NCBI GenBank assembly: GCA_041665485.1
Contig: JBAYIT010000001.1
Span: 345,399 to 409,398, forward strand
Direction: 5' to 3'
Source: Candidatus Shapirobacteria bacterium
GTDB lineage: Bacteria > Patescibacteriota > Microgenomatia > UBA12405
DNA: 64,000 nucleotides
Shown here: positions 2,693 to 60,665 of the stretch, piece after piece
Layout: each line of letters opens with the position of its first letter
Position numbering within the stretch: position 1 is the stretch's first letter
The notes under the pieces: generated by a model
Seen by the model: only the letters and a program-made list of their open reading frames with translations
What the model was told of the DNA's origin: nothing
Databases searched by the model: none
Position numbers and translations under genes: made by a program

Positions 2693-2770
2693 TGGTCAGA
2701 AATGGCTAATAACTAGTCAGGATTGGGGCAATTGAGGTCAAGATGGAGAAAGTGTTATGGGATAAGATAA
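2693..2770 (+). promoter_or_regulatory. conserved upstream module A: three GTCAGGA-like direct repeats at exact 21-bp spacing plus TTGAGG-N17-TTATGG
   Basis: gtcag at 2695, 2716 and 2737 (third is gtcaag, overlapping TTGAGG). Same architecture at 3671-3747 and 9232-9310. Lies directly upstream of ORF 2795. Confidence 0.55.
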
Positions 2771-2794: not shown

Positions 2795-3241
2795 ATGAAC
2801 AAAAATCTTAAAGAAATACTCTTTCCCAATCTTGGACATGCCTCTGACAATTCAGTGGCAATAGAGAAAATTATGAGAGAAGGTGGGTATGCTAATGAAG
2901 GTGGGTATGCTAATATGGTTAGGGAAATTCGTGGTTCGGCTCAAGGAGTGTTTCTTCGGGCAGAAAGGGTGGGAATTGCAACAGGAGCTCTTATTGGTGG
3001 CCTAGTTTTACCTGCAGTTGCAGTAGCAACTCATAGCTCAGGAAACTTGATTGTGGATGGAATCGCGGGTTTGTGTTTGTCTCTCGTGGTGGGAACTTCT
3101 GGTTTTAAAGCGGGTGGATTTATTGGAGGTGCTATTGGGCAAAGTCAGGCAGATCAAATTATTGAAAAAAGACACAAAGAGATGTTTGGCTTATCATTAG
3201 GAGATCATCTAAACAAACTAAGAAGCAGACAGACAGAATAA
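2795..3241 (+). CDS. hypothetical small membrane protein (glycine-zipper helices)
   Basis: 148-aa ORF. Has GxxxG-rich hydrophobic segments and a 15-bp tandem duplication encoding EGGYANEGGYAN. Preceded by conserved module A. Confidence 0.5.
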   Translation: MNKNLKEILFPNLGHASDNSVAIEKIMREGGYANEGGYANMVREIRGSAQGVFLRAERVGIATGALIGGLVLPAVAVATHSSGNLIVDGIAGLCLSLVVGTSGFKAGGFIGGAIGQSQADQIIEKRHKEMFGLSLGDHLNKLRSRQTE

Positions 3242-3250
3242 AAGAATAAT

Positions 3251-3682
3251 ATGGATGAGGTAAATGCAAAAATAACCAACAAGATTGCGAGTTATCAGAC
3301 AGCGGTTCTTAATCCTCTTTTTGCTGTTATGGATGTTTCCAATGAAGCGAAACAACACTTACTTGAGACTATATCGATGACTATTTTGGGTGACTTTTTT
3401 GTAACTATTGTTGAGGCTATTGCCGACAAAGAAAAACAGCAAAGAGCAGTAGCGATCATTAATAATGATGAATCTAAACCTGAAGATAAATTACAAGCAT
3501 TTTCAAAAATTGTACAAGAGGATAGAGAGTTGCAGAAAGTTGGGGAAAATTTTCTTGATACTAAACTACCTCAATATATAAATGATACCGTTTCGGCCTA
3601 TCTTGCCGTAGCTACTAAAGAACAGAAGGAGGCATATTTTGCCCTCGTGCAGAAAGTAGTTGACTCGACTGGTCAGGAATAG
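3251..3682 (+). CDS. hypothetical protein
   Basis: 143-aa ORF, tightly spaced after 2795 ORF. No recognisable motifs. Confidence 0.45.
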   Translation: MDEVNAKITNKIASYQTAVLNPLFAVMDVSNEAKQHLLETISMTILGDFFVTIVEAIADKEKQQRAVAIINNDESKPEDKLQAFSKIVQEDRELQKVGENFLDTKLPQYINDTVSAYLAVATKEQKEAYFALVQKVVDSTGQE

Positions 3683-3747
3683 ACAAGGATTAGTCAGGAT
3701 AGGGTGAATTGAGGTCAAGATTGAGGAAATGTTATGGGATAGGATAA
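3671..3747 (+). promoter_or_regulatory. conserved upstream module B (3 x GTCAGGA at 21-bp phase + promoter-like spacing)
   Basis: gtcag at 3672, 3693 and gtcaag at 3714. TTGAGG-N17-TTATGG follows. Upstream of ORF 3788. Confidence 0.55.
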
Positions 3748-3787
3748 GTGTGATTTCTTTTAGTTAAAAATTTTAGAATTAAAAAAT

Positions 3788-4831
3788 ATGTCAAGTGTAA
3801 ATTTTGCGCCTGATTACAAAAGTTTATTTCCGCAAACTAATGTCCCCAAAACTGATTTGAGTGAAGATGTCTCTTTTGATGCCACGACTTTAATCGGTGG
3901 GTACAATGCTTTAAATGTCGCTCGCGAGCTGGATCGATATTATGACTACGGATTAGACAGAACGGCGACTAGTGTAGTTGGTTCTAATATGAGTGTGTGG
4001 GCGGATAAAGATGAAAGATTGTGGGGGAAAGAAGGCAATGTTTTGTTTTCTATTGGAGCTGGGCAACTGGATTCAGTTTTGATGTGCAACGTGGCTGATG
4101 CTAAGGGTACTAATATAGGGAGAGGGGTGAGACTAGCCGATCCGACGTTGTCGATGAGTGTTGTTGAGGTGGATGGAAAACTTGTATTTGTCAAAGAAGA
4201 TCCTCGGGGCGATCGGACTACTGCCGGCGTTGATGAATTGGATTTGCCTGCGTTGCAGGCACTTAATGTTTCATTGAATAAATCGGGTTACGGGAGAGAG
4301 GGGGCATTTAGATTATTAGCTGAAGGACTCAAATTATCGCAGGTTGGTGGTGGGGTGGCAGAAAGATTAAGAGAAACTAAGACATTAGACATAATGGTGA
4401 AGACAGCTCTGGAGGTCGAGACAACCATGACTCGTTGTAGTGCAATAGAGGCAGTAAAAAAAATGGTTGCTTATCGCCCACCGGCAAATGCACCAGAGGG
4501 TGTTATTGGACAGTTGGGTAGTCGTTATGATACTGTTGCCAATAATCCAGGTGAAGTCATTTTGGCTTTATGGTTGTTAGATAATAACCCCAAAGCTTTT
4601 GTAGAGAGTGGTGGTATGGATTTTGCCTATATCTTGGTAGAAAAGGTTGGCGAGTGTATTGACGCTTTAATGGAAAACAAAGAGGAGGGTGATGGGTTTA
4701 TTTCTGAGGCTATAAAGAACGGGGATATGTATAAATATTTTTTAGGTGGTGGGGATAGTGCTATGGCTAAACTTGGGGATCTTAAGGCGAAGATCGATGC
4801 GATGAATCCACTAAAAAATATAGCATTTTAA
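3788..4831 (+). CDS. hypothetical protein
   Basis: 347-aa ORF preceded by module B. No family recognised. Confidence 0.5.
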   Translation: MSSVNFAPDYKSLFPQTNVPKTDLSEDVSFDATTLIGGYNALNVARELDRYYDYGLDRTATSVVGSNMSVWADKDERLWGKEGNVLFSIGAGQLDSVLMCNVADAKGTNIGRGVRLADPTLSMSVVEVDGKLVFVKEDPRGDRTTAGVDELDLPALQALNVSLNKSGYGREGAFRLLAEGLKLSQVGGGVAERLRETKTLDIMVKTALEVETTMTRCSAIEAVKKMVAYRPPANAPEGVIGQLGSRYDTVANNPGEVILALWLLDNNPKAFVESGGMDFAYILVEKVGECIDALMENKEEGDGFISEAIKNGDMYKYFLGGGDSAMAKLGDLKAKIDAMNPLKNIAF

Positions 4832-4891
4832 AAAATGTCTTAGGTCTTAGGTTTGGGTTTAGTTTAGAGAGGCTGTGGTATAAATTTAATT

Positions 4892-5194
4892 ATGACCTTC
4901 GACCCGATTGAATTTTTGAAACTAGATAATTTGGAGCCGGAGGAGAAAGATAAAATTAGGCCAAAATTGTTTGAGCACATGGCTTGGTTTTTGATAAATC
5001 GATTCCTTGAAGGTTTTGATGAAAACAAACTGGAGAGTTTTGAGGCAGGGCTGGGGGGTAAAAATGGGGAAGAGATATTGGAGTTAATTAAGAGTTATGA
5101 TGCTGATTTTGAAGAAAAGAAGGTTGATTGGCTGGGAGAATACCGAGCGAATTTTGATTTAAGCAAACTTTACGAGGGGATAAAACATGAATGA
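4892..5194 (+). CDS. hypothetical protein
   Basis: 100-aa acidic ORF. Overlaps the start of the next gene by 8 nt. Confidence 0.4.
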   Translation: MTFDPIEFLKLDNLEPEEKDKIRPKLFEHMAWFLINRFLEGFDENKLESFEAGLGGKNGEEILELIKSYDADFEEKKVDWLGEYRANFDLSKLYEGIKHE

Positions 5195-6686
5195 TCGGGG
5201 ATTGACAGCGGAAAAACCAAAAGGGAAAGATGCCTTGAGTAGTTTGAAATTACGGGTGGCGACAGCAGTAATGGTTGGTTTGGTGGCGGTGACGGGAATC
5301 GGGGCAACAAATACTGGTGGTTTAGATGTGTTGCGGGCGTTGGTGACACCGCAAAAAATAGAGGCAAAGGCTCCGGATGGTGTTGGTCGGACGTTGGTAA
5401 CAGAAAATAGTGGACCATGGGGTTTTGATCGGGTATATAGTGATGGAACTAAGGAAGGTGGGAGAGTTGAGGGTGGACATGAAATGCCAGAACTGATGGT
5501 AGAGGCAACAGAATTAACAGAGGAAGACAGGATGGAACAAGTGGCTGATAATGTGACTAGTATTTTGGGAGTGAATTTGTATTTAGTGGATGGGGTGCCA
5601 GTTGGCTATAGGCAGGTTGATGGGACAATCATTAAACTCAGTCAAGCGGAGATAAATGAAATAAGAACAAAAAGGGAGACGGCGATGGCTTCGGGCAATT
5701 CTACTTTGGCGTTAACTATTCGTACTGGGCCGGAGTTGGTGAACGATGGGCGAGAACGGCCGGAAATTAGACAGTGGCCAGGAGATGTAGTAAGTGATCA
5801 GGAGTTGGTGGCCAAAAAAGTAAAGATCGTAACCCCAGACGGAATGGAACTAAAACTCAAAGATTCTGCTTTTGGCCCGGGAGGTTTTTTGGAGAGATTG
5901 GTAGAGGGAAGGTTGGGTAAAAGTTTACATATTGTTGTTTTGCCGAATACAATGATGGAGATACCTGAAGATTCAAAGTATGACTTGTATCGGGGGCTGG
6001 TGGATAGTCGAGCCGGGGAGGTTAAAGCCTATCGGGATAAAGAGAGCCAGAGATTGGCAGAGGTTATTAAGCAGGGTGGACAGGCAAAATTATGGGCGGA
6101 AATTGAGTTGGCGACGATAAAGCAATTATCAAATGCGGAACTATTGAACTGGATGGTGAACAATGGAGTAGCAGAGAAACAATCTGAGCCGGCGGGAATG
6201 TTTTTGTCGCCTGGGGCAGTGAGGGCTAGGAATCCAAATTCGCCATTAGTAAAAGAGGGAGCAATAGTAGTATTTGTGGGTTGGAATGCTGATGGTGACA
6301 AGGGAATGGTGGTGCCGTTGGTGTGTGGTTCTAGTGGGGAATTTTGGGCCGAATATGGGGGTGGGATTGTTTCCAGTGGAAGTAGAACTGGAGTTTTTGA
6401 TGGTGCTACCAATTTACCAAGAGAACACAAGACTGATCCAGCACGGGCCCCGTATCAGATTGCAGAGACAACGGGTGATGTCATTGTGGCTCATGAAATG
6501 GATCATTTGAAAAAGTGGGCTGATGGAGACCCTAAAAAACCTCACACGGACGAGGGTTTGGTAGACCAAGGGGTGATTGATTATCATGAAGATGCCGGAA
6601 AAACTTTTGATGAATCTGATGGTGTAGATATGTCTAAGTATCAGTTCGCGGTTAGATTGCCAAATAATCGGGTCGTGGTTTTTTGA
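5187..6686 (+). CDS. hypothetical membrane-anchored protein with HExxH motif (possible metallopeptidase)
   Basis: N-terminal hydrophobic segment VATAVMVGLVAVTGIGA. C-terminal VAHEMDHL carries an HExxH motif. No further family assignment possible. Confidence 0.45.
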   Translation: MNDRGLTAEKPKGKDALSSLKLRVATAVMVGLVAVTGIGATNTGGLDVLRALVTPQKIEAKAPDGVGRTLVTENSGPWGFDRVYSDGTKEGGRVEGGHEMPELMVEATELTEEDRMEQVADNVTSILGVNLYLVDGVPVGYRQVDGTIIKLSQAEINEIRTKRETAMASGNSTLALTIRTGPELVNDGRERPEIRQWPGDVVSDQELVAKKVKIVTPDGMELKLKDSAFGPGGFLERLVEGRLGKSLHIVVLPNTMMEIPEDSKYDLYRGLVDSRAGEVKAYRDKESQRLAEVIKQGGQAKLWAEIELATIKQLSNAELLNWMVNNGVAEKQSEPAGMFLSPGAVRARNPNSPLVKEGAIVVFVGWNADGDKGMVVPLVCGSSGEFWAEYGGGIVSSGSRTGVFDGATNLPREHKTDPARAPYQIAETTGDVIVAHEMDHLKKWADGDPKKPHTDEGLVDQGVIDYHEDAGKTFDESDGVDMSKYQFAVRLPNNRVVVF

Positions 6687-6705
6687 TTTAGAGTAAAATG
6701 GGTGA

Positions 6706-8043
6706 ATGGGGAAAGATGATGGCGCTGATAATCCAAAACTGATAGTGGATTTTGGATTGGAGAGGAGGCAATTGACAGATGGGCCGTTGAAGAGATTGAA
6801 TAGAGTGTTAAAAATGCCGTTCAATGGGGCGGTTATAGATCTGTTTGGGGATAATGTAGCCTTGGGTGGAGGCATGGCGACGATGATTTTGGCTGACAGA
6901 CTTGATGGTGAAAGAGTTGGTTTAGGGTGGGTGGGAGAGGATATGTCGCCAATAGCGGGAGCTGTTGGTGATTGTGATTGGTTGGTAAAAAGAGATGATT
7001 GGGACGTGGAGAGAATTGTCGCCGATTTGAACGAGAGTAATAATGGTCGATTTGTGGCGATGGCAGTGGGAGTTGGGGGTGAATACTCGAGGGTGGATAT
7101 TGAGGCTAATGGAGTAATTGTGGCGTCGGTAAGAAATATTGCTTTGGTGGCGGAATATGAAAGAAAGTTAAGAGAATCTTTAGGGGAAGAGGTGGAAGAA
7201 GTGCCTGATTGGGTTTTGGATCTGGCGGGAGCTCCTTTTAAAAATTGGGCGACGATTGAGAAGAGCGGGGAAGGGTGGGAGGTGTTGGGATTCAAAAGAG
7301 ATGGTGGTTTAAATCTGGAAAGAAACGAGTTTTCGACAACTAATGTTGTGAATTTTGAAAAATTATTGCGTGCTGGAAAGCCGGAGGCTTATTTGGTGGC
7401 GGGTGATTTTTTGGCGATGATGGGGAGATTGTTCACATTGAAGTGTTATGGGGCAGGTTTTGGAGATCGGGCTGAAGACATGCAGAAGATAATGGCTGAA
7501 TTTGGACAATTTTTCCAACTGGCGGAAGGATTTAAAAAAAAGCAATACAACTCATCTAGATCAAGATTGGCGGAAAGGATGGCATTGGGTTTGGCTTTTG
7601 ATGTCGATGCTGGCAGGCAAATGCTGATTAAAACTGGCTTAATGGCTGTATTTTCAGAAAAATTGGCGGGAAAAATTAGTGAACTTAGTAACCTCGAGAA
7701 TCAAGCAAAGTTTTCTAATGCATTCGATCTAGTAAATTATTTTGACAATGGATTGAAGATAAGAGATATAGGAAGATTGTTGGTAGTGTTGGGAATAGGT
7801 TGTGGTTTAAACCGAGAAGAATATCTTGAAGTAATGGAGGAAATGAGACAATATTGGAACCCGAGGCCGATTGATAAAGTGGCAAAATGGGGTGGCCGAG
7901 GTGGGTTTGACGTGAGCTTGAGAGAGAGAGGTTTTAGTGAAGTGTTTGATGATGAACAGGTAAGAAGTTGGCAAAGATTGGAAACCAGAAAACCCGAAGA
8001 GACGGAGAAGTTGGTTGGATGGTTGGTTGATGTAGTAAAATGA
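6706..8043 (+). CDS. hypothetical protein
   Basis: 445-aa ORF. Its stop overlaps the start of the next gene (ATGA at 8040-8043). Confidence 0.5.
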   Translation: MGKDDGADNPKLIVDFGLERRQLTDGPLKRLNRVLKMPFNGAVIDLFGDNVALGGGMATMILADRLDGERVGLGWVGEDMSPIAGAVGDCDWLVKRDDWDVERIVADLNESNNGRFVAMAVGVGGEYSRVDIEANGVIVASVRNIALVAEYERKLRESLGEEVEEVPDWVLDLAGAPFKNWATIEKSGEGWEVLGFKRDGGLNLERNEFSTTNVVNFEKLLRAGKPEAYLVAGDFLAMMGRLFTLKCYGAGFGDRAEDMQKIMAEFGQFFQLAEGFKKKQYNSSRSRLAERMALGLAFDVDAGRQMLIKTGLMAVFSEKLAGKISELSNLENQAKFSNAFDLVNYFDNGLKIRDIGRLLVVLGIGCGLNREEYLEVMEEMRQYWNPRPIDKVAKWGGRGGFDVSLRERGFSEVFDDEQVRSWQRLETRKPEETEKLVGWLVDVVK

Positions 8044-9233
8044 ATGATCTTATGAGTACTTTTGGACCAATATTAACTAAAGAAAGTTATCGGGTGGTGG
8101 CCGAAGTGGTGGAAAAGGTGATTGACGGGAGTAAATTAGAGGTACTTGTGGGATTACCGTATTCGGGGCGGTCCTTGATTTTGCGGCAAATGATGTACAA
8201 CCCGGAATTTTATAGTGAAGAATTTAAAAAGAAGGTAGAGAAAATAGTTGGAGTAGTGTTTGATATTCCCTCGGAGGCTGGTTTGGATGAGGTTTGGCAA
8301 AATAGTCCCTGGGGGAAAAAGATGGGAGGGAATTTTGAGGAGGCGGTTGAAAAAATAGTGAGTAGTGGTAAGCGATTAGTTTTAGCAATTAATTCAATTG
8401 ACACCTTGGGAGATAGTAAGGAAACTAGAAAAAATTGGAAGAAACTAATGGCAATTTATTATCGTCATCAGGCAGGTATTTCTTGGATAATTGGCCAAGG
8501 TTGGGAGGAGGTTGACGATGTGGCTGGTTGGCTTAGAGAAATGGATGGGTATTATCTAACCAATAAAAATTGGTTGCCAATGAGAACTTTAGAGGATATA
8601 AGCTTGTTTTTAAAAAATAGTAATAGTCAAAAACCAGAGACAGGGAAAATTTATGGTTTGAGTGGTGGATATTATTGTTTGGCAGAAAGGCTTAGAGAAA
8701 AACCGGAATTAGTTGATGCGCCGGTGGCGGTTAACGACGGAGTTATAGATCATTATTTGGGAATTTTATGGGAAAGTTGTGGCGAGAAAAGTCAACAGCA
8801 ATTATTAGATTTAATGCGGGGAAAGAGTAGTAATTTTAATGATTATTTGGCTAAAACTGGAGTGGTAAAAATAGAAGAGGGAAAGTGGAAATTATTTTCA
8901 CCGTTATTTTACGAGTGGCTAAAAAAGATGGTGGGAAGTAAGAGGCCAGAGATTGAGGAAAAGCTGGAAAAATTGTGGTTGGGAAGTAGTGATTTGAGCG
9001 AGGAGTTGAGTTATCAGGAGTATGAGGTATTGAAATTGCTGTGGCAAAAACAGGGTGAGGTGGTGGTGCGAAATGAGGTGGCCGAAGTGTTGTGGCCAAA
9101 TGATACGGAGGATAAATATTCCGATTGGGCGATTGACCAGGTAATGGCAAAAATTAGAAAAAAGCTTGGAGATGTAGGGGAAAATAGATTGATTAGGACA
9201 ATCAAGGGCAAGGGGATGATGCTAGAAAAATAG
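8040..9233 (+). CDS. P-loop NTPase-like domain fused to C-terminal OmpR/PhoB-type winged-helix DNA-binding domain (putative transcriptional regulator)
   Basis: C-terminus LSYQEYEVLKLLWQKQGEVVVRNEVAEVLWPND..DQVMAKIRKKLGD..LIRTIKGKGMML matches the trans_reg_C consensus (L.E..LL..L....G.V.SR..L...VW......D....I..LRKKL.....I.TVRG.GY). N-terminus has Walker-A-like GLPYSGRS and Walker-B-like LVLAINSID. Confidence 0.6.
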   Translation: MNDLMSTFGPILTKESYRVVAEVVEKVIDGSKLEVLVGLPYSGRSLILRQMMYNPEFYSEEFKKKVEKIVGVVFDIPSEAGLDEVWQNSPWGKKMGGNFEEAVEKIVSSGKRLVLAINSIDTLGDSKETRKNWKKLMAIYYRHQAGISWIIGQGWEEVDDVAGWLREMDGYYLTNKNWLPMRTLEDISLFLKNSNSQKPETGKIYGLSGGYYCLAERLREKPELVDAPVAVNDGVIDHYLGILWESCGEKSQQQLLDLMRGKSSNFNDYLAKTGVVKIEEGKWKLFSPLFYEWLKKMVGSKRPEIEEKLEKLWLGSSDLSEELSYQEYEVLKLLWQKQGEVVVRNEVAEVLWPNDTEDKYSDWAIDQVMAKIRKKLGDVGENRLIRTIKGKGMMLEK

Positions 9234-9310
9234 TCAGAATTGGGCAAAAAATAGTCAGGAAAGAGGCATTTAAGGTCAAGATGTTAATAATGTTATGGGA
9301 TATTATGGGG
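9232..9310 (+). promoter_or_regulatory. conserved upstream module C (3 x GTCAGGA at 21-bp phase + TTAAGG-N17-TTATGG)
   Basis: gtcag at 9233 and 9254, gtcaag at 9275. Immediately downstream of the regulator gene and upstream of ORF 9357. Confidence 0.55.
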
Positions 9311-9356
9311 GCATATGAAAAACATAGATAGAAGGTAATTTTTAAGATTTGCTACT

Positions 9357-9980
9357 TTGGCTGTGGTTGGCGCTGGAGTGGCGGCGTGTGCTCCTAGAGC
9401 CCCGGAAGTAGTTGACCCAAGCTGTTTAATTGAGTGGACTAAAAATGGCGAATGGATAGACGCTAGTAGGAAATTGGACAAGACAGAGTCAGTTTGGCCA
9501 GTAGACGGTTTGGTTGGTGGTGGTTGCCCGTGTACTCTAAGGGCTGGGGTGTTGCACGGAAGAGAGCTTGATGGGGATGAATTAAGGTTATTAGAAAAAA
9601 GTAAATATTATATTAATTTGGCAGATGGAGTAAATGTTGATGATGAAACGTATGAAAGTGGGCCAGATTTTAATGGAATATGGACAGGACAAGATGGTTA
9701 TATAAAGAAGGCGCATTTGATTGCGGTTCGTAAGCTGAACACTGCTACTGGGGAAATGACTTTGAGTGATTATGTCTTGTCTGTGGAAGAAGTGAATGGG
9801 CAAACCGGTGGTGGATATCATCGATTTAGTGTGCCTTTGGGCCGAGAAACAATGGTGATTGCAACCGTGACTGACAGTAATGGAAAAATGGGATTAACAA
9901 GTCGAGACAGATTGGTTGTGTGGAAAAATGGTAATGGAGGGATTGGTTTGTATCGACAGTCTTCGGGGTTTGGGCCCTAG
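9357..9980 (+). CDS. hypothetical protein (possible lipoprotein; start codon uncertain)
   Basis: TTG start. N-terminus AVVGAGVAAC resembles a lipobox but the signal peptide is too short. The in-frame upstream region is closed by a stop at 9336. Confidence 0.35.
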   Translation: MAVVGAGVAACAPRAPEVVDPSCLIEWTKNGEWIDASRKLDKTESVWPVDGLVGGGCPCTLRAGVLHGRELDGDELRLLEKSKYYINLADGVNVDDETYESGPDFNGIWTGQDGYIKKAHLIAVRKLNTATGEMTLSDYVLSVEEVNGQTGGGYHRFSVPLGRETMVIATVTDSNGKMGLTSRDRLVVWKNGNGGIGLYRQSSGFGP

Positions 9981-10010
9981 TGGGGGTGTATTTTGGTGAT
10001 AGAATTAAGT

Positions 10011-10733
10011 ATGAAAAAAATAATTGCAACGGTGGTGATGGTGTTAGCGATTATTTGGATTGTGCCGTTTCGGCTGATTAATTGGGGCAAGATTGCCTGG
10101 GTGCCGGCGGAAACGGTGACAGTGATGGGGGAGGCAAAGACAACGGTTAAAAATCAAATTGCCAGTTTTAATGCCGGGGTGGATGTGTTGAGTAATACCA
10201 AAGAGGAAGCGACTAAAGAAATTAATAGCAAAATGGAGGCGCTGGTGGTGGCGATGAAAGGTTTTGGAATCGGTGAGGCTGATATTAGAACTCAAAGCTT
10301 GAGTTATTACCAACAGGAAGAACCATATTGGGAAAATGGGGTGCAGAGATACAAAAAGGGCCAGTGGCGGGTTAGTAGTTCAATTGAGGTTAAATTGAGG
10401 GAGATTGACAGGGCGTCGGAATTGGCCGGAGTGCTGGCGGGAAGCGGAGCCAACAATGTTTATGGGCCAAATTTCCAGCTGGATGACACGACTGAAGCAG
10501 AGAAAGGGTTGTTTGAAGAGGCAGTTAAAAATGCCAAAGATAAGGCAGAGTTAGTGGCAACGGCTACTGGAAGGAAATTGGGGAAAGTATTAAGTGTGAG
10601 TGAAGGAGGAGCCAGTGGTGGGATTTACCCAGTATATGGAGCTAAAATGGCCGAGGGTGGAGGTGGAGCACCAATGGAGGCTGGAGCCGGGACGGTGTAC
10701 AAATCGGTGACGGTGGTGTTTGAACTCAAGTAG
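10011..10733 (+). CDS. SIMPL-domain (DUF541/BP26-like) protein
   Basis: N-terminal TM segment followed by conserved core resembling SIMPL/BP26 periplasmic proteins (GIGEADIRTQSLSYY ... GANNVYGPNF ... ATGRKLGKVLSV). ATG at 10011 preferred over TTG at 9993. Confidence 0.65.
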   Translation: MKKIIATVVMVLAIIWIVPFRLINWGKIAWVPAETVTVMGEAKTTVKNQIASFNAGVDVLSNTKEEATKEINSKMEALVVAMKGFGIGEADIRTQSLSYYQQEEPYWENGVQRYKKGQWRVSSSIEVKLREIDRASELAGVLAGSGANNVYGPNFQLDDTTEAEKGLFEEAVKNAKDKAELVATATGRKLGKVLSVSEGGASGGIYPVYGAKMAEGGGGAPMEAGAGTVYKSVTVVFELK

Positions 10734-17485: not shown

Positions 17486-17709
17486 AGATTACAAGAGATA
17501 AGGGGTTGAAATGACGAGGAGCCACCCAACTCCTTATTCTCTTCTAATCTCTAGTTGTTAAGTTTACAACCTATATTATACATTATTTATGTCGCTTGTC
17601 AAGTTATAGGTCTATGTTTTAAAGTAATTGGTAAACGGTAACCGGTAATTGGTAAAAATATAGGGCTAGAAGATGGTTGATTAGATTTCGAGGCCTATAA
17701 AGTTTAGAT

Positions 17710-27866: not shown

Positions 27867-28123
27867 ATGTCAACAGGTACCGCCGATTATACATACTGGT
27901 TACTTATATGTCAAGTTATAGGACGTTATTTTCCACCGGAACCACGGCTTTGAGTGCGAAAGGCAGTGTTGAATTTAGGGACGTTGAATTGTGGTTTCCT
28001 GAATTGGTTGAAGCCGGGATTTTTGGGAGGAATCCGAACCTCGAAAGGTTTGGTGGCTTGAGGACTTTGGAGAGTGTTGTCTGATGGTTTAGTCATATTG
28101 GTTTATTTTAGCAGAAATTTCTA

Positions 28124-28207
28124 ACGTCATCGCGAGGCCGAAGGCCGTGGCGATCTCGTTTGGGATTGCTTCGTCCTCCGAAAGCTTTCGGAGTCCTCGC
28201 AATGACG
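28124..28207. repeat. REP/MITE-like palindromic element, copy 1 (acgtcatcgcgagg...cctcgcaatgacg)
   Basis: 13-bp terminal inverted repeats enclose ggccgaaggccgtggcgatctc..gggattgcttcg plus an internal hairpin. Other copies at 37624-37727 (reverse orientation, with insert), 55577-55648, 56005-56081, and a minimal fused form at 62735-62752. Confidence 0.8.
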
Positions 28208-28217
28208 GACGATGTGG

Positions 28218-31468: not shown

Positions 31469-31480
31469 GCTTTTTTATTG

Positions 31481-31577
31481 CTCAATAACTGATTTTTGCA
31501 ATCCTCGCTACCTTCGGGGTCCGCTGTATGCTGGACCGTTCGCTGCGGGTTGAAAAATCGTTATTTCGCAATCAATA
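31481..31577. repeat. 85-bp palindromic element, copy B
   Basis: caataactgatttttgcaatcctcgctaccttcgggg...cgctgcgggttgaaaaatcgttattt. Same core as copies A and C, with covarying outer stem. Confidence 0.6.
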
Positions 31578-37623: not shown

Positions 37624-37727
37624 ACGTCATTGTGAGGATCCCGATAGCTATCGGGAGACGAAGCAATCTCAATGAGATCGCCACGGCCTTTGGCCTTCCG
37701 TCTGAGCCGGACGCGGCGCGATGACGT
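37624..37727. repeat. REP/MITE-like palindromic element, copy 2 (reverse orientation, with about 30-bp internal insert)
   Basis: Reverse complement reads acgtcatcgcg[ccgcgtccggctcagacgg]aaggccaaaggccgtggcgatctcattgagattgcttcgtctc..cctcacaatgacgt. Part of a GC-rich, hairpin-dense intergenic stretch at 37480-37740. Confidence 0.7.
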
Positions 37728-41000: not shown

Positions 41001-41870
41001 TCAAATAGTATCAAAATTTGATTTTATAGTATCCCAAGAAGTTGGTTTTTTGCCTTCAATTTGGACAATTAGTGGTTCGAGATTTGTGATTTTCAAACGC
41101 TCTTTTTTGGGAGTAATCGTCCAGATTCCAGGCCAGGGAACGAAGGCGCGAAAGAGATGGTCGAGATCAGTATTGAATTTGGGATGAATAATTTGGTGAT
41201 TATTTAGATATTTTTGAAAAAACTGCCAATCGATGAAGCCATCGTCGCGAGTGATTTGACGGGCATAGATTAGATGTTGGATGTTAGATCCTAGATCCTG
41301 GGGAGCAAGATGATAATTACCGGTGGCAATTTGGGGAAGAAGTTCGAGTGATTTTTGGCCAGCCAAACAGTAAAGAGAATCATAGAGAGCCTCACGGGTG
41401 TCGGTGGGTATTATGGGAATGGGATATTGGGCGATAATTTCGCCACGATCGAATTGGCTTGACATCTTGATAAAGGTAATGCCGGTTTCAGATTCGCCAT
41501 TGATAATGGCCCACTCGACTGGGAAACGACCAGCGTAGTTGGGGAGGAGAGATTGATGAATGTTGATAGCCATAACCTTGGAGAAATTGAGCCATTTTTC
41601 GTTGATCAATTTTCCAAACCCTGAAACTAAAATAAAATCGGGCCGAGTCAAACTCGATGGGATTTGATCAAGAGTTTCGAGGGGAAAACATGGGATTTTG
41701 TTGTCTTCGGCGTAAATTTGAGTGGGGTTTTTAGTGAGAACTAATTTGTCGCCGGGGCGGGGCGGGGTGGTGACAACGCCGATAATATCGAATTGGTGGC
41801 TTTGGGCAAGAAGGTCGAGAGTGAGGACGGAATAGTGTTGGAATGAGCCAAAAAAAATAATTGAATTCAT
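41001..41870 (-). CDS. fmt: methionyl-tRNA formyltransferase
   Basis: N-terminal IIFFGSF..DIIGVVTTPPRP, INIHQSLLPNYAGRFPVEWAIINGESETGIT and the C-terminal domain fit Fmt. In-frame gatctta-family repeat insert (41270-41305). Confidence 0.85.
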   Translation of the reverse strand: MNSIIFFGSFQHYSVLTLDLLAQSHQFDIIGVVTTPPRPGDKLVLTKNPTQIYAEDNKIPCFPLETLDQIPSSLTRPDFILVSGFGKLINEKWLNFSKVMAINIHQSLLPNYAGRFPVEWAIINGESETGITFIKMSSQFDRGEIIAQYPIPIIPTDTREALYDSLYCLAGQKSLELLPQIATGNYHLAPQDLGSNIQHLIYARQITRDDGFIDWQFFQKYLNNHQIIHPKFNTDLDHLFRAFVPWPGIWTITPKKERLKITNLEPLIVQIEGKKPTSWDTIKSNFDTI

Positions 41871-41904: not shown

Positions 41905-42459
41905 GTGAGACGAATTTTGACTTATCCTGACCCAATTTTGAGAACTAAAACGAAAGAAGTTAAGGCGGTTGACGAGAAACTGCTTGGTGAAATTAATGAG
42001 TTGAAGGAGATTTTATTAAAGAGTGAAAATGGGGCGGGGCTGGCGGCTACTCAAATTGGGTCGGCGGGCAGGTTTTTTGGATTGAAAAATTTGAGTAAAA
42101 AAAAGACGGAAGTTTTTATTAATCCAAAAATTACCAAATTTTGGGGAGAAAAGACATATCCTCGAATTATAAAAAACAAGGATGAGTCGGAAGATTTTCT
42201 GGAAGGTTGTTTGTCGTTTCCCAATTATTACGGCACAGTGAAGAGATATTTAAAGATAGAGGTGGAGTGGGATGAAATTAGGAGTAAGGAACTTGGTACG
42301 AGGAAAAAGGTGTTGGAAGGGTTTGAGGCGATTGTTTGGCAACATGAAGCAGATCATTTGGATGGGATTTTGTTTATTGACCATATAAAGCGGGACGGGG
42401 GAAAGTTGTATTGGTGGGAAGGAGAAACTAAAAAAGAGATATTAGATCCTAGATTTTAG
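41905..42459 (+). CDS. def: peptide deformylase
   Basis: GAGLAATQIG, EGCLSFP and HEADHLDG are the three canonical PDF motifs. Confidence 0.9.
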   Translation: MRRILTYPDPILRTKTKEVKAVDEKLLGEINELKEILLKSENGAGLAATQIGSAGRFFGLKNLSKKKTEVFINPKITKFWGEKTYPRIIKNKDESEDFLEGCLSFPNYYGTVKRYLKIEVEWDEIRSKELGTRKKVLEGFEAIVWQHEADHLDGILFIDHIKRDGGKLYWWEGETKKEILDPRF

Positions 42460-53271: not shown

Positions 53272-53463
53272 AATTTATTATGAGATTCTAGGGGTTAGAT
53301 TTGGGAGCCGGAACGACCAACTAAAATATCAGTAGGTTTGATTTCTCCAATGATATTTAAATTGGTTCTGGATGGTTCTGCTCCTTTTGTTCCAGGTTTC
53401 ATTTCTAAACCAGTAGGACTTTTAAAAAATTCTGGTGATTTCATATTTGATAAAAATTAATAA

Positions 53464-53619
53464 TTAAATTTTATTGAGTTGAGATAACCGAGTGGTTAAG
53501 GCTTCGTAGACCCTTGCTTGGAGTTCGATAGGGGAAGCCTCGATTATTTTTTCGAGTGATGGGCCTTTTTCAACTGGTTTATGTAATTCTGGCTTGAAGC
53601 CGATTGGTGATCTTTCCAT
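53464..53619 (-). CDS. hypothetical small protein (51 aa)
   Basis: Hand-translated ATG..TAA ORF MERSPIGFKPELHKPVEKGPSLEKIIEASPIELQARVYEALTTRLSQLNKI. Not in supplied track (below 60 aa). Confidence 0.2.
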   Translation of the reverse strand: MERSPIGFKPELHKPVEKGPSLEKIIEASPIELQARVYEALTTRLSQLNKI

Positions 53620-53686
53620 AATCTTATAATAATGATTATTAATTAAATATAGGCTGGCCTATAAGAGATGTCAAGGGGGGAATTTG

Positions 53687-53727
53687 GATCTTAGATCTTG
53701 GATCTTAGTTCTTAGATTCTAGATTAC
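53687..53727. repeat. gatctta heptamer tandem array
   Basis: ggatcttagatcttggatcttagttcttagattctagattac at the 3' end of the ATPase gene. Same family at 60048-60080, 42445-42476 and 41270-41305. Confidence 0.8.
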
Positions 53728-55943
53728 TTATGCTTGCCCCAGCGTTCTTGGGAAGTGCGGATGAGCTTATCGTGGCCTTGGTTTTTACAGTCAAGTAGAG
53801 GCAGAGTGGTGGCGTAAAATGGTTCTTTGGTTTCGGAGTCGATCGATAATTTACAAATGATTTGATATTTGCCCAGTTTGACTAGGTCATCGGCGGGGAA
53901 CTTCTCGCCAAATTCTTTGCTTAAGATATAAGCGTCTTGATTGCCAACGACAAAGGACATAAGTGAGCCGACGTTGCCAAAAATAGCGTCTTGGATGGGG
54001 CGCTCAAGCTGATTCATATATTGGTTGGCAACAATGAGGTTGAGTTTAAATTTGCGGGCTTCAGAGAGTATTTTAATAAAGGCCTCGGTGGCAAAATTTT
54101 GGAATTCGTCAACGTAGAGATAGAAGTCTGATCGGTCGGCTTGTGTTTGAAATACCCGATTCATGGCCGAAAGTTGAATTTGGGTGATCAACATGGCGCC
54201 AAGAAGGGCAGAATTATCTTCGCCGAGTTTGCCATTGGACAGGTCGGCGATCAAGATTTTCTTTTGATCCATGATATCTTGAATGCGGACTTTAGATTTG
54301 GGGTGGGCAATAGTGTTGCGGATATTAGTGGAGGAAATAAATTGGCCGACTTTGTTCAAAATAGGAGCGATGGCTTCGTTTTGGAATTTGGCATCCATTT
54401 GATCAAATTCATTAATCCAGAAGTTTTTAAGAGTTTGATTGGCAAGGAGAGGAACGATTTTTTGGCGATAAGATTTGGAGGTGAGAATTTCAACGATATG
54501 AGTGAGATCGGAGCCGGGAACGTTGACGAGAGTTAAAACGGCGTTGCGCAAAATATGCTCGAGGCGTGGCCCCCAGGAGGTGGCGCCATAAAGTTTTTTG
54601 AAAATGGAAATAACGCCGGAGGCAACTAATTCTTTTTGGGAATCGTTTTCAGCCTCCAAAACATTTAAGGGGTAAACATAATCGGGATCGGCGGGGTTGA
54701 AATAACAACAATCGTTGATGCGGGAGGAGGGGATGTAATCAAGAATAGTTTGGCAAAGGTCGCCGTGGGGGTCGATGACGGCTACGCCCCGGCCTTTGCG
54801 AATATCGTCGATGGCCATGTTGGCGATGAGAGTGGTTTTACCGGTGCCGGATTTACCGACAATGTAGGTGTGGCGGCGGCGGTCTTCACCTTCTTTAATG
54901 CCAAAAATAGCTTCTTTATTGCGGAATTCGGTTTTGGCAAAAACAGTCACGTTTTGACGTTCTTCTTCGGAAAGGTCGGCAACGACGGGTAAGTTTTCGG
55001 GCGGATCAGCATACAGCTTTTTGCCCCAAGCAATGTTGGGGATCTTGGTTTTTTCTCCGGGAAAGTGCCAAAGGACTGACAATTCTTCAGTGTTTAAAAT
55101 TTGATGATTAAGAGAAGAAGTAAAAGCGCGGTTAAGAATCGATTTGAGTAATTTCTTTTTGGTGAAAAAACCGGGTTGATTAATTTTAATAAAATTGCCA
55201 CGAGGGTTGGTATAAATGCCAAAGGAAGAGGTAAAAGCAGATAGAAGGCCGGAATTATTGGTTAAAAAATTAATTTGGGTGAGGAGGCCGGGGAATTGGA
55301 TTTTGGTTTCGAAAACGGCCTTATCGGGGTGATTTTGGCGAAAATTGCGGGATGAGTCGACCATGATGCCATTTTGAATGATGGAGGTGATGGGGTATTG
55401 CCAATTGTTGGGGGCGGAAGTGATTAAAATTTGATAAAGAAAAAAATCGGTGGGGGAGAGGGAGCGGGAAAGGGGGGAGAGGAGGGAATTAAGGGGATCA
55501 GTGTCCTTAAAATCGTGAATGGATTTTATTGGATAATTGTCTGATTTTGATAAGGACAATTGACTAAAAAATAGCCCGTCATCGCGAGGCCGAAGGCCGT
55601 GGCGATCTCCTTGGGATTGCTTCGTCGCTTCGCTTCTCGCAATGACGTCGGAAGCAAGGTAATCATTAATTTCCAAAGTAATAGCGGTGGGGTACTGGGC
55701 TAGGATTTGGGAGCGAAAGAATTCGGCTGAATCGGCAGGCGTTGCCACCATAAAATAAAGCTGGCCTTGTTTGAGAACGATTTCTAAAGAAATGGCGGTG
55801 TGCTTTTTGCCAAAGATGCGGTCAAAAAACGAGCCTGTGCCGGCTTGAGAAAAATTAGAGAGGAGGGAGGACATGGATTCGAGAGTGAATTCGTTGGTTT
55901 GAGGAAGACGGATGTTGAAGAGTTTCCAGGGAGACATAACCAA
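53724..55943 (-). CDS. P-loop NTPase of the TraG/TraD/VirD4-like (DUF87/AAA-like) conjugation/secretion ATPase type
   Basis: Walker A IVGKSGTGKTTL and Walker B YLYVDEFQNF in a C-terminal domain of about 400 aa. No N-terminal TM helices. Carries a complete REP-like element in-frame (55577-55648, encoding SDVIARSEATKQSQGDRHGLRPRDD). Confidence 0.5.
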   Translation of the reverse strand: MVMSPWKLFNIRLPQTNEFTLESMSSLLSNFSQAGTGSFFDRIFGKKHTAISLEIVLKQGQLYFMVATPADSAEFFRSQILAQYPTAITLEINDYLASDVIARSEATKQSQGDRHGLRPRDDGLFFSQLSLSKSDNYPIKSIHDFKDTDPLNSLLSPLSRSLSPTDFFLYQILITSAPNNWQYPITSIIQNGIMVDSSRNFRQNHPDKAVFETKIQFPGLLTQINFLTNNSGLLSAFTSSFGIYTNPRGNFIKINQPGFFTKKKLLKSILNRAFTSSLNHQILNTEELSVLWHFPGEKTKIPNIAWGKKLYADPPENLPVVADLSEEERQNVTVFAKTEFRNKEAIFGIKEGEDRRRHTYIVGKSGTGKTTLIANMAIDDIRKGRGVAVIDPHGDLCQTILDYIPSSRINDCCYFNPADPDYVYPLNVLEAENDSQKELVASGVISIFKKLYGATSWGPRLEHILRNAVLTLVNVPGSDLTHIVEILTSKSYRQKIVPLLANQTLKNFWINEFDQMDAKFQNEAIAPILNKVGQFISSTNIRNTIAHPKSKVRIQDIMDQKKILIADLSNGKLGEDNSALLGAMLITQIQLSAMNRVFQTQADRSDFYLYVDEFQNFATEAFIKILSEARKFKLNLIVANQYMNQLERPIQDAIFGNVGSLMSFVVGNQDAYILSKEFGEKFPADDLVKLGKYQIICKLSIDSETKEPFYATTLPLLDCKNQGHDKLIRTSQERWGKHK
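55577..55648. repeat. REP/MITE-like palindromic element, copy 3 (inside ATPase coding sequence, in-frame)
   Basis: cgtcatcgcgaggccgaaggccgtggcgatctccttgggattgcttcgtcgcttcgcttctcgcaatgacg. Confidence 0.8.
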
Positions 55944-56004: not shown

Positions 56005-56081
56005 ACGTCATCGCGAGGCCGAAGGCCGTGGCGATCTCGTTCGGGATTGCTTCTCCGCTAGCTGGCGGATCGCAATGACGT
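56005..56081. repeat. REP/MITE-like palindromic element, copy 4 (intergenic)
   Basis: acgtcatcgcgaggccgaaggccgtggcgatctcgttcgggattgcttctccgctagctggcggatcgcaatgacgt. Preceded by an agttacg array (55953-55986). Confidence 0.8.
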
Positions 56082-56210
56082 TAAATTTGTTTTTGTCTTA
56101 TGGGATAAAAGAAACTACATACGTAGTAGGTAGAAAAAAGACCACTTGCTACTTGAAAATGATTTTATAAGAGTGTATCTTATAGGGCAATTTACTAGTT
56201 ATTATCTTTT

Positions 56211-60552: not shown

Positions 60553-60560
60553 TTTCTGGC

Positions 60561-60642
60561 TCGATAACTAATTTTTGCAGTGCTCACGCGTTGCGCCCTT
60601 CGGGCTTACATGATTGCGCGCTGAAAAATTGTTATCTCGCCT
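60561..60642. repeat. 85-bp palindromic element, copy C
   Basis: cgataactaatttttgcagtgctcacgcg...cccttcgggc...gcgcgctgaaaaattgttatctcg. Outer stem differs from copy A by paired, complementary substitutions. Confidence 0.6.
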
Positions 60643-60665
60643 TAAAATTATTGCTATACTAACTT

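Follow-up and report, generated by a model that had tools for sequence, protein, structure and literature searches.

Phased GTCAG boxes and a candidate STAND-OmpR-type regulator in a Shapirobacteria genome and its relatives

Which protein reads a repeat that recurs, with exact spacing, in front of several groups of genes in a tiny genome? Bacteria of the Candidate Phyla Radiation (CPR) have tiny genomes and few transcription factors, and we found no defined regulon for them in the literature that we searched. The question is raised by a stretch of 64,000 nucleotides (nt) from a Candidatus Shapirobacteria bacterium (assembly GCA_041665485.1, contig JBAYIT010000001.1, positions 345,399 to 409,398 of the forward strand). 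We refer to this whole stretch as the window and give positions within it. A preliminary description had noted an ~80-bp module with three GTCAGGA-like direct repeats, or boxes, at 21-bp phasing, present in three copies next to an open reading frame (ORF 8040-9233) for a winged-helix regulator. Our analysis suggests that these modules are regulator-dependent, activated sigma-70-type promoters bound by the product of ORF 8040-9233, a reading to which we assign a probability of roughly 0.6 on the basis of sequence comparison.

Three phased modules and their predicted core promoters

Scanning both strands of the 64-kb window for GTCAGRA-N14-GTCAGGA-N14-GTCAAGA with up to three mismatches allowed, we found three sites, all on the + strand (2695, 3672, and 9233) and all with zero mismatches, against 0.00 expected in 100 dinucleotide-preserving shuffles. 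The boxes start at 2695/2716/2737, 3672/3693/3714, and 9233/9254/9275, exactly 21 bp apart throughout. An unbiased repeat search recovered the identical family (D4, 78 nt, n = 3), at 2693-2770, 3670-3747, and 9231-9308, with the second and third copies 82% and 74% identical to the first. Pattern scan, repeat search, and shuffles thus all confirm the three-copy module first described. Single GTCARGA heptamers were not enriched in the window (14 vs. 10.5 expected), so the signal is the phased arrangement and not the word. A weight matrix trained on nine modules from other genomes, with none from the window, scored the three sites at 75.6-76.8 bits, while the next best of ~128,000 positions on both strands scored -3.8. 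Because the matrix owed nothing to the window, this is an independent test, and it finds exactly three modules.

Module A (2693-2770, +) consists of boxes GTCAGAA (2695-2701), GTCAGGA (2716-2722), and GTCAAGA (2737-2743), followed by TGTTATGGGA at 2753-2762, a predicted -10 hexamer TAAGAT at 2763-2768, and a predicted start near 2775. In module B (3670-3747, +), the boxes read GTCAGGA (3672-3678), GTCAGGA (3693-3699), and GTCAAGA (3714-3720), with TGTTATGGGA at 3730-3739, predicted -10 TAGGAT at 3740-3745, and a predicted start near 3752. Module C (9231-9308, +) has boxes GTCAGAA (9233-9239), GTCAGGA (9254-9260), and GTCAAGA (9275-9281), TGTTATGGGA at 9291-9300, predicted -10 TATTAT at 9301-9306, and a predicted start near 9314. 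The 12-mer TGTTATGGGATA begins 9 nt past box 3 in each copy (2753, 3730, and 9291), and the window holds no further exact copies of it. Box 1 of copy B falls within the final codons of ORF 3251-3682 (GGTCAGGAATAG). Copy C had been placed 1 bp after the stop of ORF 8040-9233, but its first box overlaps that stop codon: its first base is the G of the TAG at 9231-9233.

We next turned to homologues of the regulator at 57%, 39-45%, and down to 25% identity and searched their contigs for the module. Every locus with a close homologue (8 genomes) carries a module that touches, or lies no more than ~80 bp from, the operon formed by the regulator gene and the gene directly upstream of it, and this module usually overlaps the regulator's stop codon. 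The upstream gene, here called gene X (6706-8043, +, 445 amino acids [aa] in the window), holds the same position in every genome with the 21-bp module. The modules lie at 1446 and 4977 in locus L004, 3008 and 3881 in L006, 4956 (+) and ~1161 (-) in L008, ~10890 in L009, 3503 in L010, and 5242 and 5979 in L011; in L012 (8207) and L013 (3427, -), they occupy a divergent intergenic region adjoining the X-regulator operon. Across 14 aligned instances from 8 genomes, the conserved columns are T-rGTCAGrAaT (box 1), tAGTCAGrA (box 2), TT, and AG-[GC]TCAAG (box 3), followed by T.TTAyrGGA and TAnnAT, with the 14-bp spacers essentially unconstrained. Spacing is 21/21 bp in 13 of the 14 instances and 20/21 in L009. 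Box 3 is [GC]TCAAG in 14/14, never the GTCAGG form.

Conservation alone would also fit a module that is transcribed as a small or structured RNA, an outcome that the preliminary description had itself named. However, an Rfam scan of the whole window at gathering scores returned five tRNAs only, and folding of both strands of the three modules gave z values of -1.6 to +1.7 relative to shuffles, with no common structure. Moreover, conservation falls in phased blocks without covariation. With no Rfam match and no fold beyond that of shuffled sequence, we find an RNA explanation barely credible.

The alignment also changed our view of the core promoter. In 14/14 instances, a TAnnAT-like hexamer starts at the last TA of TTATGGGATA (TAAGAT, TAGGAT, and TATTAT in the window; TAGAAT, TATGAT, TACAAT, TATAAA, and TAATAT in relatives). 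In five modules, namely window C (ATG 9315), both from L004, module 1 of L006, and the minus-strand module of L008, the downstream ORF begins at an ATG 6-8 nt past this hexamer, and a leaderless mRNA is expected to start ~7 nt past its -10. Because TAnnAT is kept in all 14 instances and is correctly spaced from these leaderless ATGs, we prefer it as the likely -10. It lies ~8 bp downstream of the TTATGG chosen earlier, and the predicted starts (near 2775, 3752, and 9314) accordingly move ~8 nt farther downstream. The same spacing suggests that leaderless transcripts are used in Shapirobacteria.

Relative to TAnnAT, the boxes center near -77, -56, and -35. We found no TTGACA-like hexamer 16-18 bp upstream of TAnnAT in the modules, and the TTGAGG originally read as a -35 is replaced in relatives by TTAAGG, CCAACT, TTGAAC, or TTCCGT. 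By contrast, other promoters in the window, as read from intergenic sequence, are canonical TTGACA-N17-TATAAT (intergenic 17486-17709, 27867-28217, and 53272-53723 [-]; 58777 [+]). Promoters that depend on an activator typically pair a good -10 with an activator site that takes the place of a -35 hexamer, and the modules, as we read them, have this layout.

Downstream of the predicted starts, we noted two recurring features. The motif TTTTAGTTAAAAAT lies between predicted start and start codon in several long-leader modules (window 3761-3775, L006 ~3960, and L009 ~10970), and in many such modules the start codon falls exactly 100 nt past box 1, namely in window module A, L006 module 2, L009, and L011 module 1.

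The genes behind the modules, which we call cargo, are unrelated between genomes, except that L004 has a member of the ORF 3788 family. This raises the possibility of a module that serves chiefly for recombination or cassette insertion, or that is itself a small mobile repeat, with promoter activity secondary. Two rearrangements would be in line with this. Contigs L005 (5571-5650) and L007 (6154-6230) encode an identical regulator to L006 (3008-3090) and share its module through box 3 and 12 nt more (…CATAATATTTGT); past that point, L006 continues into the -10 and ~4 kb of cargo, while L005 and L007 continue into an inverted cobalamin-adenosyltransferase/ribonucleotide reductase block. The breakpoint thus falls inside the module and inside the promoter. 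In L008, the two module copies are inverted and flank the X-regulator block.

Still, none of the loci contains an integrase or transposase, we saw neither terminal inverted repeats nor target-site duplications, and homologous recombination between repeated promoters accounts for the breakpoints equally well. Nor does the module behave like a mobile repeat: the 64 kb contain three copies, each pointing the same way as the genes behind it, and folding gave no stable hairpin. We scanned one genome per species for TRGTCAGGA-N11-RAGGTCAAGA, and the representatives of 185,579 species, the source genome evidently not being one of them, yielded 43 loci over unrelated phyla; among those scanned, the full three-box module occurred only in CAZIHS010000013 (2 loci, corresponding to L008). 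In viral contigs, the DNA pattern had three matches, all of them 21-nt coding tandem repeats, and these were rejected. A mobile repeat had been named at the outset as a possible undoing of the proposed regulon, and what we found were few, co-oriented copies with no wider spread in the species or viral scans. We therefore regard a primary role in recombination or mobility as highly improbable, although repeated modules do seem, from these comparisons, to act as recombination joints for cargo turnover.

On the minus strand of L008 (483-1161), the module has -10 TAATAT and an ATG 6 nt on, followed by ~600 bp without a called gene, in which at least one uncalled small ORF can be seen by eye.

The box and its candidate reader

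ORF 8040-9233 (+, 397 aa) is the last gene of the module-B operon. Pfam matched Trans_reg_C alone, at aa 322-394, which is a C-terminal OmpR/PhoB-type winged helix, and NCBIfam and PDB sequence searches matched only the DNA-binding domains of OmpR/PhoB-family proteins. The earlier assignment to this type therefore stands for the winged helix but not for a two-component response regulator. There was no Response_reg match in aa 1-320 even at an E value of 5, and we found no HisKA or HATPase_c domain of a histidine kinase in the tested window ORFs or within 10 kb on either side of the gene in any locus. Instead, the N-terminal ~300 aa are predicted to fold as a STAND/NB-ARC-like module in which the nucleotide-binding, helical, and winged-helix parts of a nucleotide-binding oligomerization domain (NOD) appear to be present. 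We obtained no BTAD match, the winged helix being C-terminal, and neither Pfam nor the structure model gave a repeat-type sensor (TPR, LRR, WD40, or SUPR); the protein ends with the winged helix. As modeled, the regulator joins a minimal STAND-type NOD to an OmpR-type winged helix at its C terminus.

The modeled N-terminal domain also resembles Orc1/Cdc6 and DnaA domain III. Together with the phasing and direct orientation of the repeats, this would suit a replication origin, with the boxes as iterons or recognition sites of an initiator like Orc1/Cdc6 or DnaA. However, the window shows no GC-skew switch in 2-kb bins, and each module instead stands ahead of an ORF and includes a -10, followed in several of them by a leaderless ATG, so we give an origin function almost no credence.

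The family appears to be small. Relatives of the regulator are 300-450 aa long, and a search of 1.84 billion proteins for its N-terminal domain gave 23 representative clusters at E ≤ 0.001. Phage and plasmid records contained no full-length homologue; what matched there were ordinary response regulators, at the level of the winged helix alone. A search of viral contigs with the regulator profile gave no relative. As judged by these searches, the family is very rare and restricted to CPR bacteria, and we found no description of it or of the GTCAG box in the literature that we searched.

A metagenome scan with the regulator alignment added 16 more loci, at 25-53% identity in the best segment, and one further relative, P0015, was included separately. 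In this distant clade, the box appears in a different architecture. A canonical TTGACA-N17-TA[AC]AAT promoter precedes the regulator gene in 12/12 loci with enough upstream sequence (L058-L069, L074), and CTGAC (GTCAG in reverse complement) lies on either side of its -10 with a 9-11 bp period. L064, for example, reads TTGACA-AACACTTCTATC-CTGAC-TACAAT-CTGAC-TATAGT-CTGAC-TAAT-ATG, and the boxes of L068 and L069 are slightly degenerate (CTGAG and CTGAT). Read in reverse complement, box 3 of the 21-bp modules includes TTGAC, the sequence that serves on the opposite strand as the true -35 of the distant clade. None of the distant-clade loci has gene X. Because the box follows the regulator across ~20 loci and two architectures, with X missing from one of them, the regulator gene is the only constant partner.

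The protein side tells a similar story. The recognition helix, EKYSDWAIDQvMsKIRKK, is near-invariant across the family even at 22% overall identity, with S361, W363, and A364 invariant and Y360, D362, I365, and D366 kept in at least 90% of members. This near-invariant helix matches the invariant box and so supports the regulator as the binder. The preliminary description had proposed the adjacent ORF 8040-9233 as controller and a comparison with related genomes as a check. Across ~20 loci of diverged CPR genomes, the box co-occurs with the regulator gene, which makes its product by far the best candidate, and the GTCAG boxes are most likely its binding sites.

Could something else read the boxes, be it an alternative sigma factor, the product of gene X, or a TrmB-like protein, leaving the winged-helix neighbor as mere synteny? 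X always accompanies the 21-bp architecture, and the T.TTAyrGGA-TAnnAT stretch also occurs with degenerate boxes, which suggests a box-independent core-promoter signature. Against this, the distant clade lacks both X and TrmB and has a canonical sigma-70-type promoter, yet the boxes still accompany the regulator there, and both helix and box stay near-invariant across proteins that have diverged to 22-25% identity. We consider a different reader improbable.

A proposed activation mechanism

Under our preferred reading, each module would be a regulator-dependent sigma-70-type promoter, with a TAnnAT -10 and no TTGACA -35, whose three boxes lie on one helix face, at intervals of two turns (21 bp). 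The winged helix of the ORF 8040-9233 product would read the GTCAG boxes, and its N-terminal STAND/NB-ARC-like domain would allow several protomers to assemble cooperatively on them. At the variant proximal box, [GC]TCAAG, the bound protomer would take the -35 slot and recruit RNA polymerase in class II or "sigma-adaptation" style, a step that we modeled on PhoB and SARP/AfsR. The targets would be three adjacent units (2795-3682, 3788-9233, and 9315-10733). Module B would thereby provide positive autoregulation of X and the regulator, while modules A and C would drive adjacent cargo genes. Sequence anatomy, its conservation, the pairing of box and regulator gene, and the regulator's fold are shown by the analysis above, whereas binding, oligomerization, start sites, and activation over repression are inferred.

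Several observations weigh against this scheme. First, the Walker A motif lacks the canonical lysine (GLPYSGRS here, GLPxSGRS in close relatives; the P-loop reads GANS, AGRR, or MGIS in other relatives), and Walker B is hhhhNSxD, in which the D alone is nearly invariant. With so degenerate a P-loop and an NSxD Walker B, nucleotide hydrolysis and ATP-driven switching are doubtful. Second, the T.TTAyrGGA directly upstream of the -10 is more conserved than a spacer would be, which the model leaves unexplained. It resembles a degenerate box (TACAGGA vs. GTCAGGA) but lies 19 bp, not 21, past box 3, and it is also present beside degenerate boxes at L006 5712 and L011 6817. Third, one relative, L073, has the same recognition helix yet no boxes in the 7.5 kb available. 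Fourth, the promoter in the distant clade is a strong one whose -10 and start are overlapped by the boxes, a repressor-type layout, and the regulator family can plausibly repress. Finally, the count of three modules applies to 64 kb of the genome.

The fourth point leads to a rival with the same sites and the same binder but the opposite outcome. The regulator would occupy -35, -56, and -77, and perhaps TAyrGGA, and block RNA polymerase, so that it would hold down all three units, its own operon among them, by negative autoregulation until released by a signal. The boxes of 12 distant relatives do flank the -10/start of the regulator's canonical promoter, which is a classic operator position; in the window, a box-like element abuts the -10, and the -10 hexamers are fairly good (4-5/6 matches). 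However, promoters meant for repression normally carry strong core elements, and the modules have no -35 hexamer while housekeeping promoters of the same genome have a perfect TTGACA. The orientation of the boxes relative to transcription is also opposite to that of the distant-clade operators, and rigid two-turn phasing that ends at the -35 slot is the usual geometry of activators (PMC10936776). Overall, repression at the modules seems unlikely, though it is the main rival.

Activation and repression could also be combined. In such a two-mode switch, tandem 11-bp boxes would shut the regulator's own promoter, whereas 21-bp boxes, together with X, would fire a tandem array of promoter-plus-cargo cassettes whose genes turn over completely between strains, with the module as the recombination joint. 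We think it rather unlikely that all of this holds. If it did, these episymbiotic bacteria would carry a hypervariable cassette locus that is gated by the regulator and possibly encodes host-interaction or conflict proteins.

How new is the activator that we propose? The closest parallel is with SARP/AfsR proteins, STAND-plus-OmpR-type activators that bind heptamer repeats one or two turns apart over a poor -35 (PMC10936776). Their direct repeats have a period of 11 or 22 bp, and 8 bp separate the 3' repeat from the -10 (PMC10936776), while the period here is exactly 21 bp and box 3 ends 19 bp before TAnnAT (14 bp before an alternative, T[AG]GGAT). In SARP/AfsR, the OmpR-type winged helix is N-terminal and a STAND NOD is found in the "large" members; here, the order is reversed. 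Moreover, our candidate has no BTAD and no TPR sensor, its family spans 300-450 aa only, its P-loop is degenerate, and it belongs to CPR bacteria rather than Actinobacteria.

With PhoB/OmpR, the candidate shares the winged-helix family, direct repeats standing in for the -35 where the promoter has a usable -10, and, in the distant clade, the classical ~11-bp tandem period. It differs in lacking a receiver and a nearby histidine kinase, and in that strong boxes recur every 21 bp with at most a degenerate half-site between. MalT and other LAL proteins likewise have an N-terminal STAND NOD followed by a C-terminal DNA-binding domain, and the MalT oligomer binds cooperatively to several phased asymmetric boxes upstream of promoters without a -35. 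Here, however, the DNA-binding domain is OmpR-type rather than LuxR-type, there are no sensor or arm repeats, the protein is about one-third the size of MalT, and the Walker A lysine is missing. Orc1/Cdc6 and DnaA also place an AAA+-like fold before a winged-helix or HTH domain and use arrays of phased asymmetric boxes, but our sites are promoter associated, show no skew switch, and go with an OmpR-type C-terminal domain. The principle of phased direct repeats bound by a neighboring winged-helix protein is thus already familiar. What appears to be new is a compact, permuted STAND-OmpR regulator, found only in CPR bacteria, together with its cognate box and the two architectures of promoter.

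The gene cluster, other features of the window, and significance

The same locus was assembled independently from three samples. The cluster genes all lie on the + strand and are flanked by nucleotide-metabolism genes: NrdR, ribonucleotide reductase, and cobalamin adenosyltransferase upstream, and SIMPL, thymidylate synthase, DHFR, dCTP deaminase, thymidylate kinase, and SHMT downstream. The modules split the cluster into three units: A (2795-3682), B (3788-9233), and C (9315-10733). Unit A (+) comprises ORF 2795-3241 (148 aa, glycine-rich, two predicted transmembrane segments) and ORF 3251-3682 (143 aa), neither of which matched a known family. The proximal genes of unit B (3788-6686, +) are ORFs 3788-4831 (347 aa), 4892-5194 (100 aa), and 5187-6686 (499 aa), the last with an N-terminal transmembrane anchor and an HEMDH motif; the unit then runs on into gene X and the regulator. 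For gene X, sequence searches of Pfam, NCBIfam, PADLOC, and PDB, profile searches included, returned nothing, and word-based homologue searches found only X itself and P0030. Its structure model (predicted local distance difference test score of 33) was unusable. X is a possible co-factor or sensor.

Unit C (+) opens with the ATG at 9315, 8 nt past the -10 and thus leaderless, and contains ORF 9357-9980 and a SIMPL-family ORF (9993-10733). The stretch from 9315 to 9380 begins ATG AAA AAC ATA GAT AGA AGG TAA, in frame with ORF 9357-9980, and reads MKNIDRR*FLRFATLAVVGAGVAAC, a twin-arginine and lipobox-like signal peptide broken by the in-frame TAA at 9336-9338. This interrupted signal sequence is identical in three independent assemblies. 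The TAA could mark a pseudogenized start, a site of read-through, or a recoding site.

The preliminary description had predicted a regulon of ORFs 2795, 3788, and 9357, with downstream genes, that encodes membrane or secreted proteins. Three units do stand behind the three modules, and the second of them, driven by copy B, would be the regulator's own operon. The membrane or secreted character holds for some products: ORF 2795 (two transmembrane segments), ORF 5187 (anchor), the unit-C protein (lipobox-type signal), and SIMPL (N-terminal hydrophobic segment). However, ORFs 3251, 3788, and 4892 and gene X are not membrane associated, and most module-driven genes in relatives encode soluble proteins without a family assignment.

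Elsewhere in the window, a box-like triple on the - strand (41915-41942; CTCAAAATTGG-GTCAGGATAA-GTCAAAA, 10-11 bp period) was considered as a fourth site and rejected as probably due to chance, with a poor matrix score. It lies ~40 nt upstream of a TATAAT before an fmt-like formyltransferase gene (41001-41870). GC skew, (G-C)/(G+C), is +0.26 to +0.52 in every 2-kb bin from 1 to 64000, an extreme asymmetry without a switch that persists where genes are on the minus strand (27-33, 39-42, and 53-56 kb).

Several families of short tandem heptamer-type repeats (D2, D7, and D9: GGTAATY x n, AAAGTCCAAAAAGTAGAAAGTCC, and TAGATCT-type) are found mainly in intergenic DNA or where genes end (17613, 29548, 43257, 56464, 61219 [inverted 61625]; 378, 10739, 23915, 33654; 29899, 42434, 53683, 60043) and are possible terminator or spacer elements. 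An element of ~90 nt resembling repetitive extragenic palindromes (ACGTCATCGCGAGGCCGAAGGCCGTGGCGATCTC…GCAATGACG; D8, I2, and I3) occurs in at least four copies (28124-28210, 55576-55626, 56005-56090, and, inverted, 37625-37696). Three copies of a conserved intergenic element (GCTCATTGATAAATTTTTGCAG…CTGAAAAATTATCAA; D11) with an internal inverted repeat and no Rfam match lie at 949-1040, 31480-31518, and 60559-60650, one of them just upstream of the cobalamin adenosyltransferase gene. Lastly, a perfect extended promoter on the - strand at 17486-17600 (TTGACA-N16-TGTATAAT) faces an ORF-free stretch with no Rfam match at gathering score, and it may drive an unannotated small RNA.

For CPR biology, the analysis yields a cis-element defined at the base-pair level, namely the GTCAG box with two promoter architectures and predicted starts, together with a specific candidate binder from a very rare family. 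This amounts to a small, testable gene circuit in an uncultivated lineage that cannot be grown alone. It would also carry the STAND plus OmpR-type winged-helix design of Streptomyces AfsR over to a distant lineage and a far smaller protein with permuted domains.

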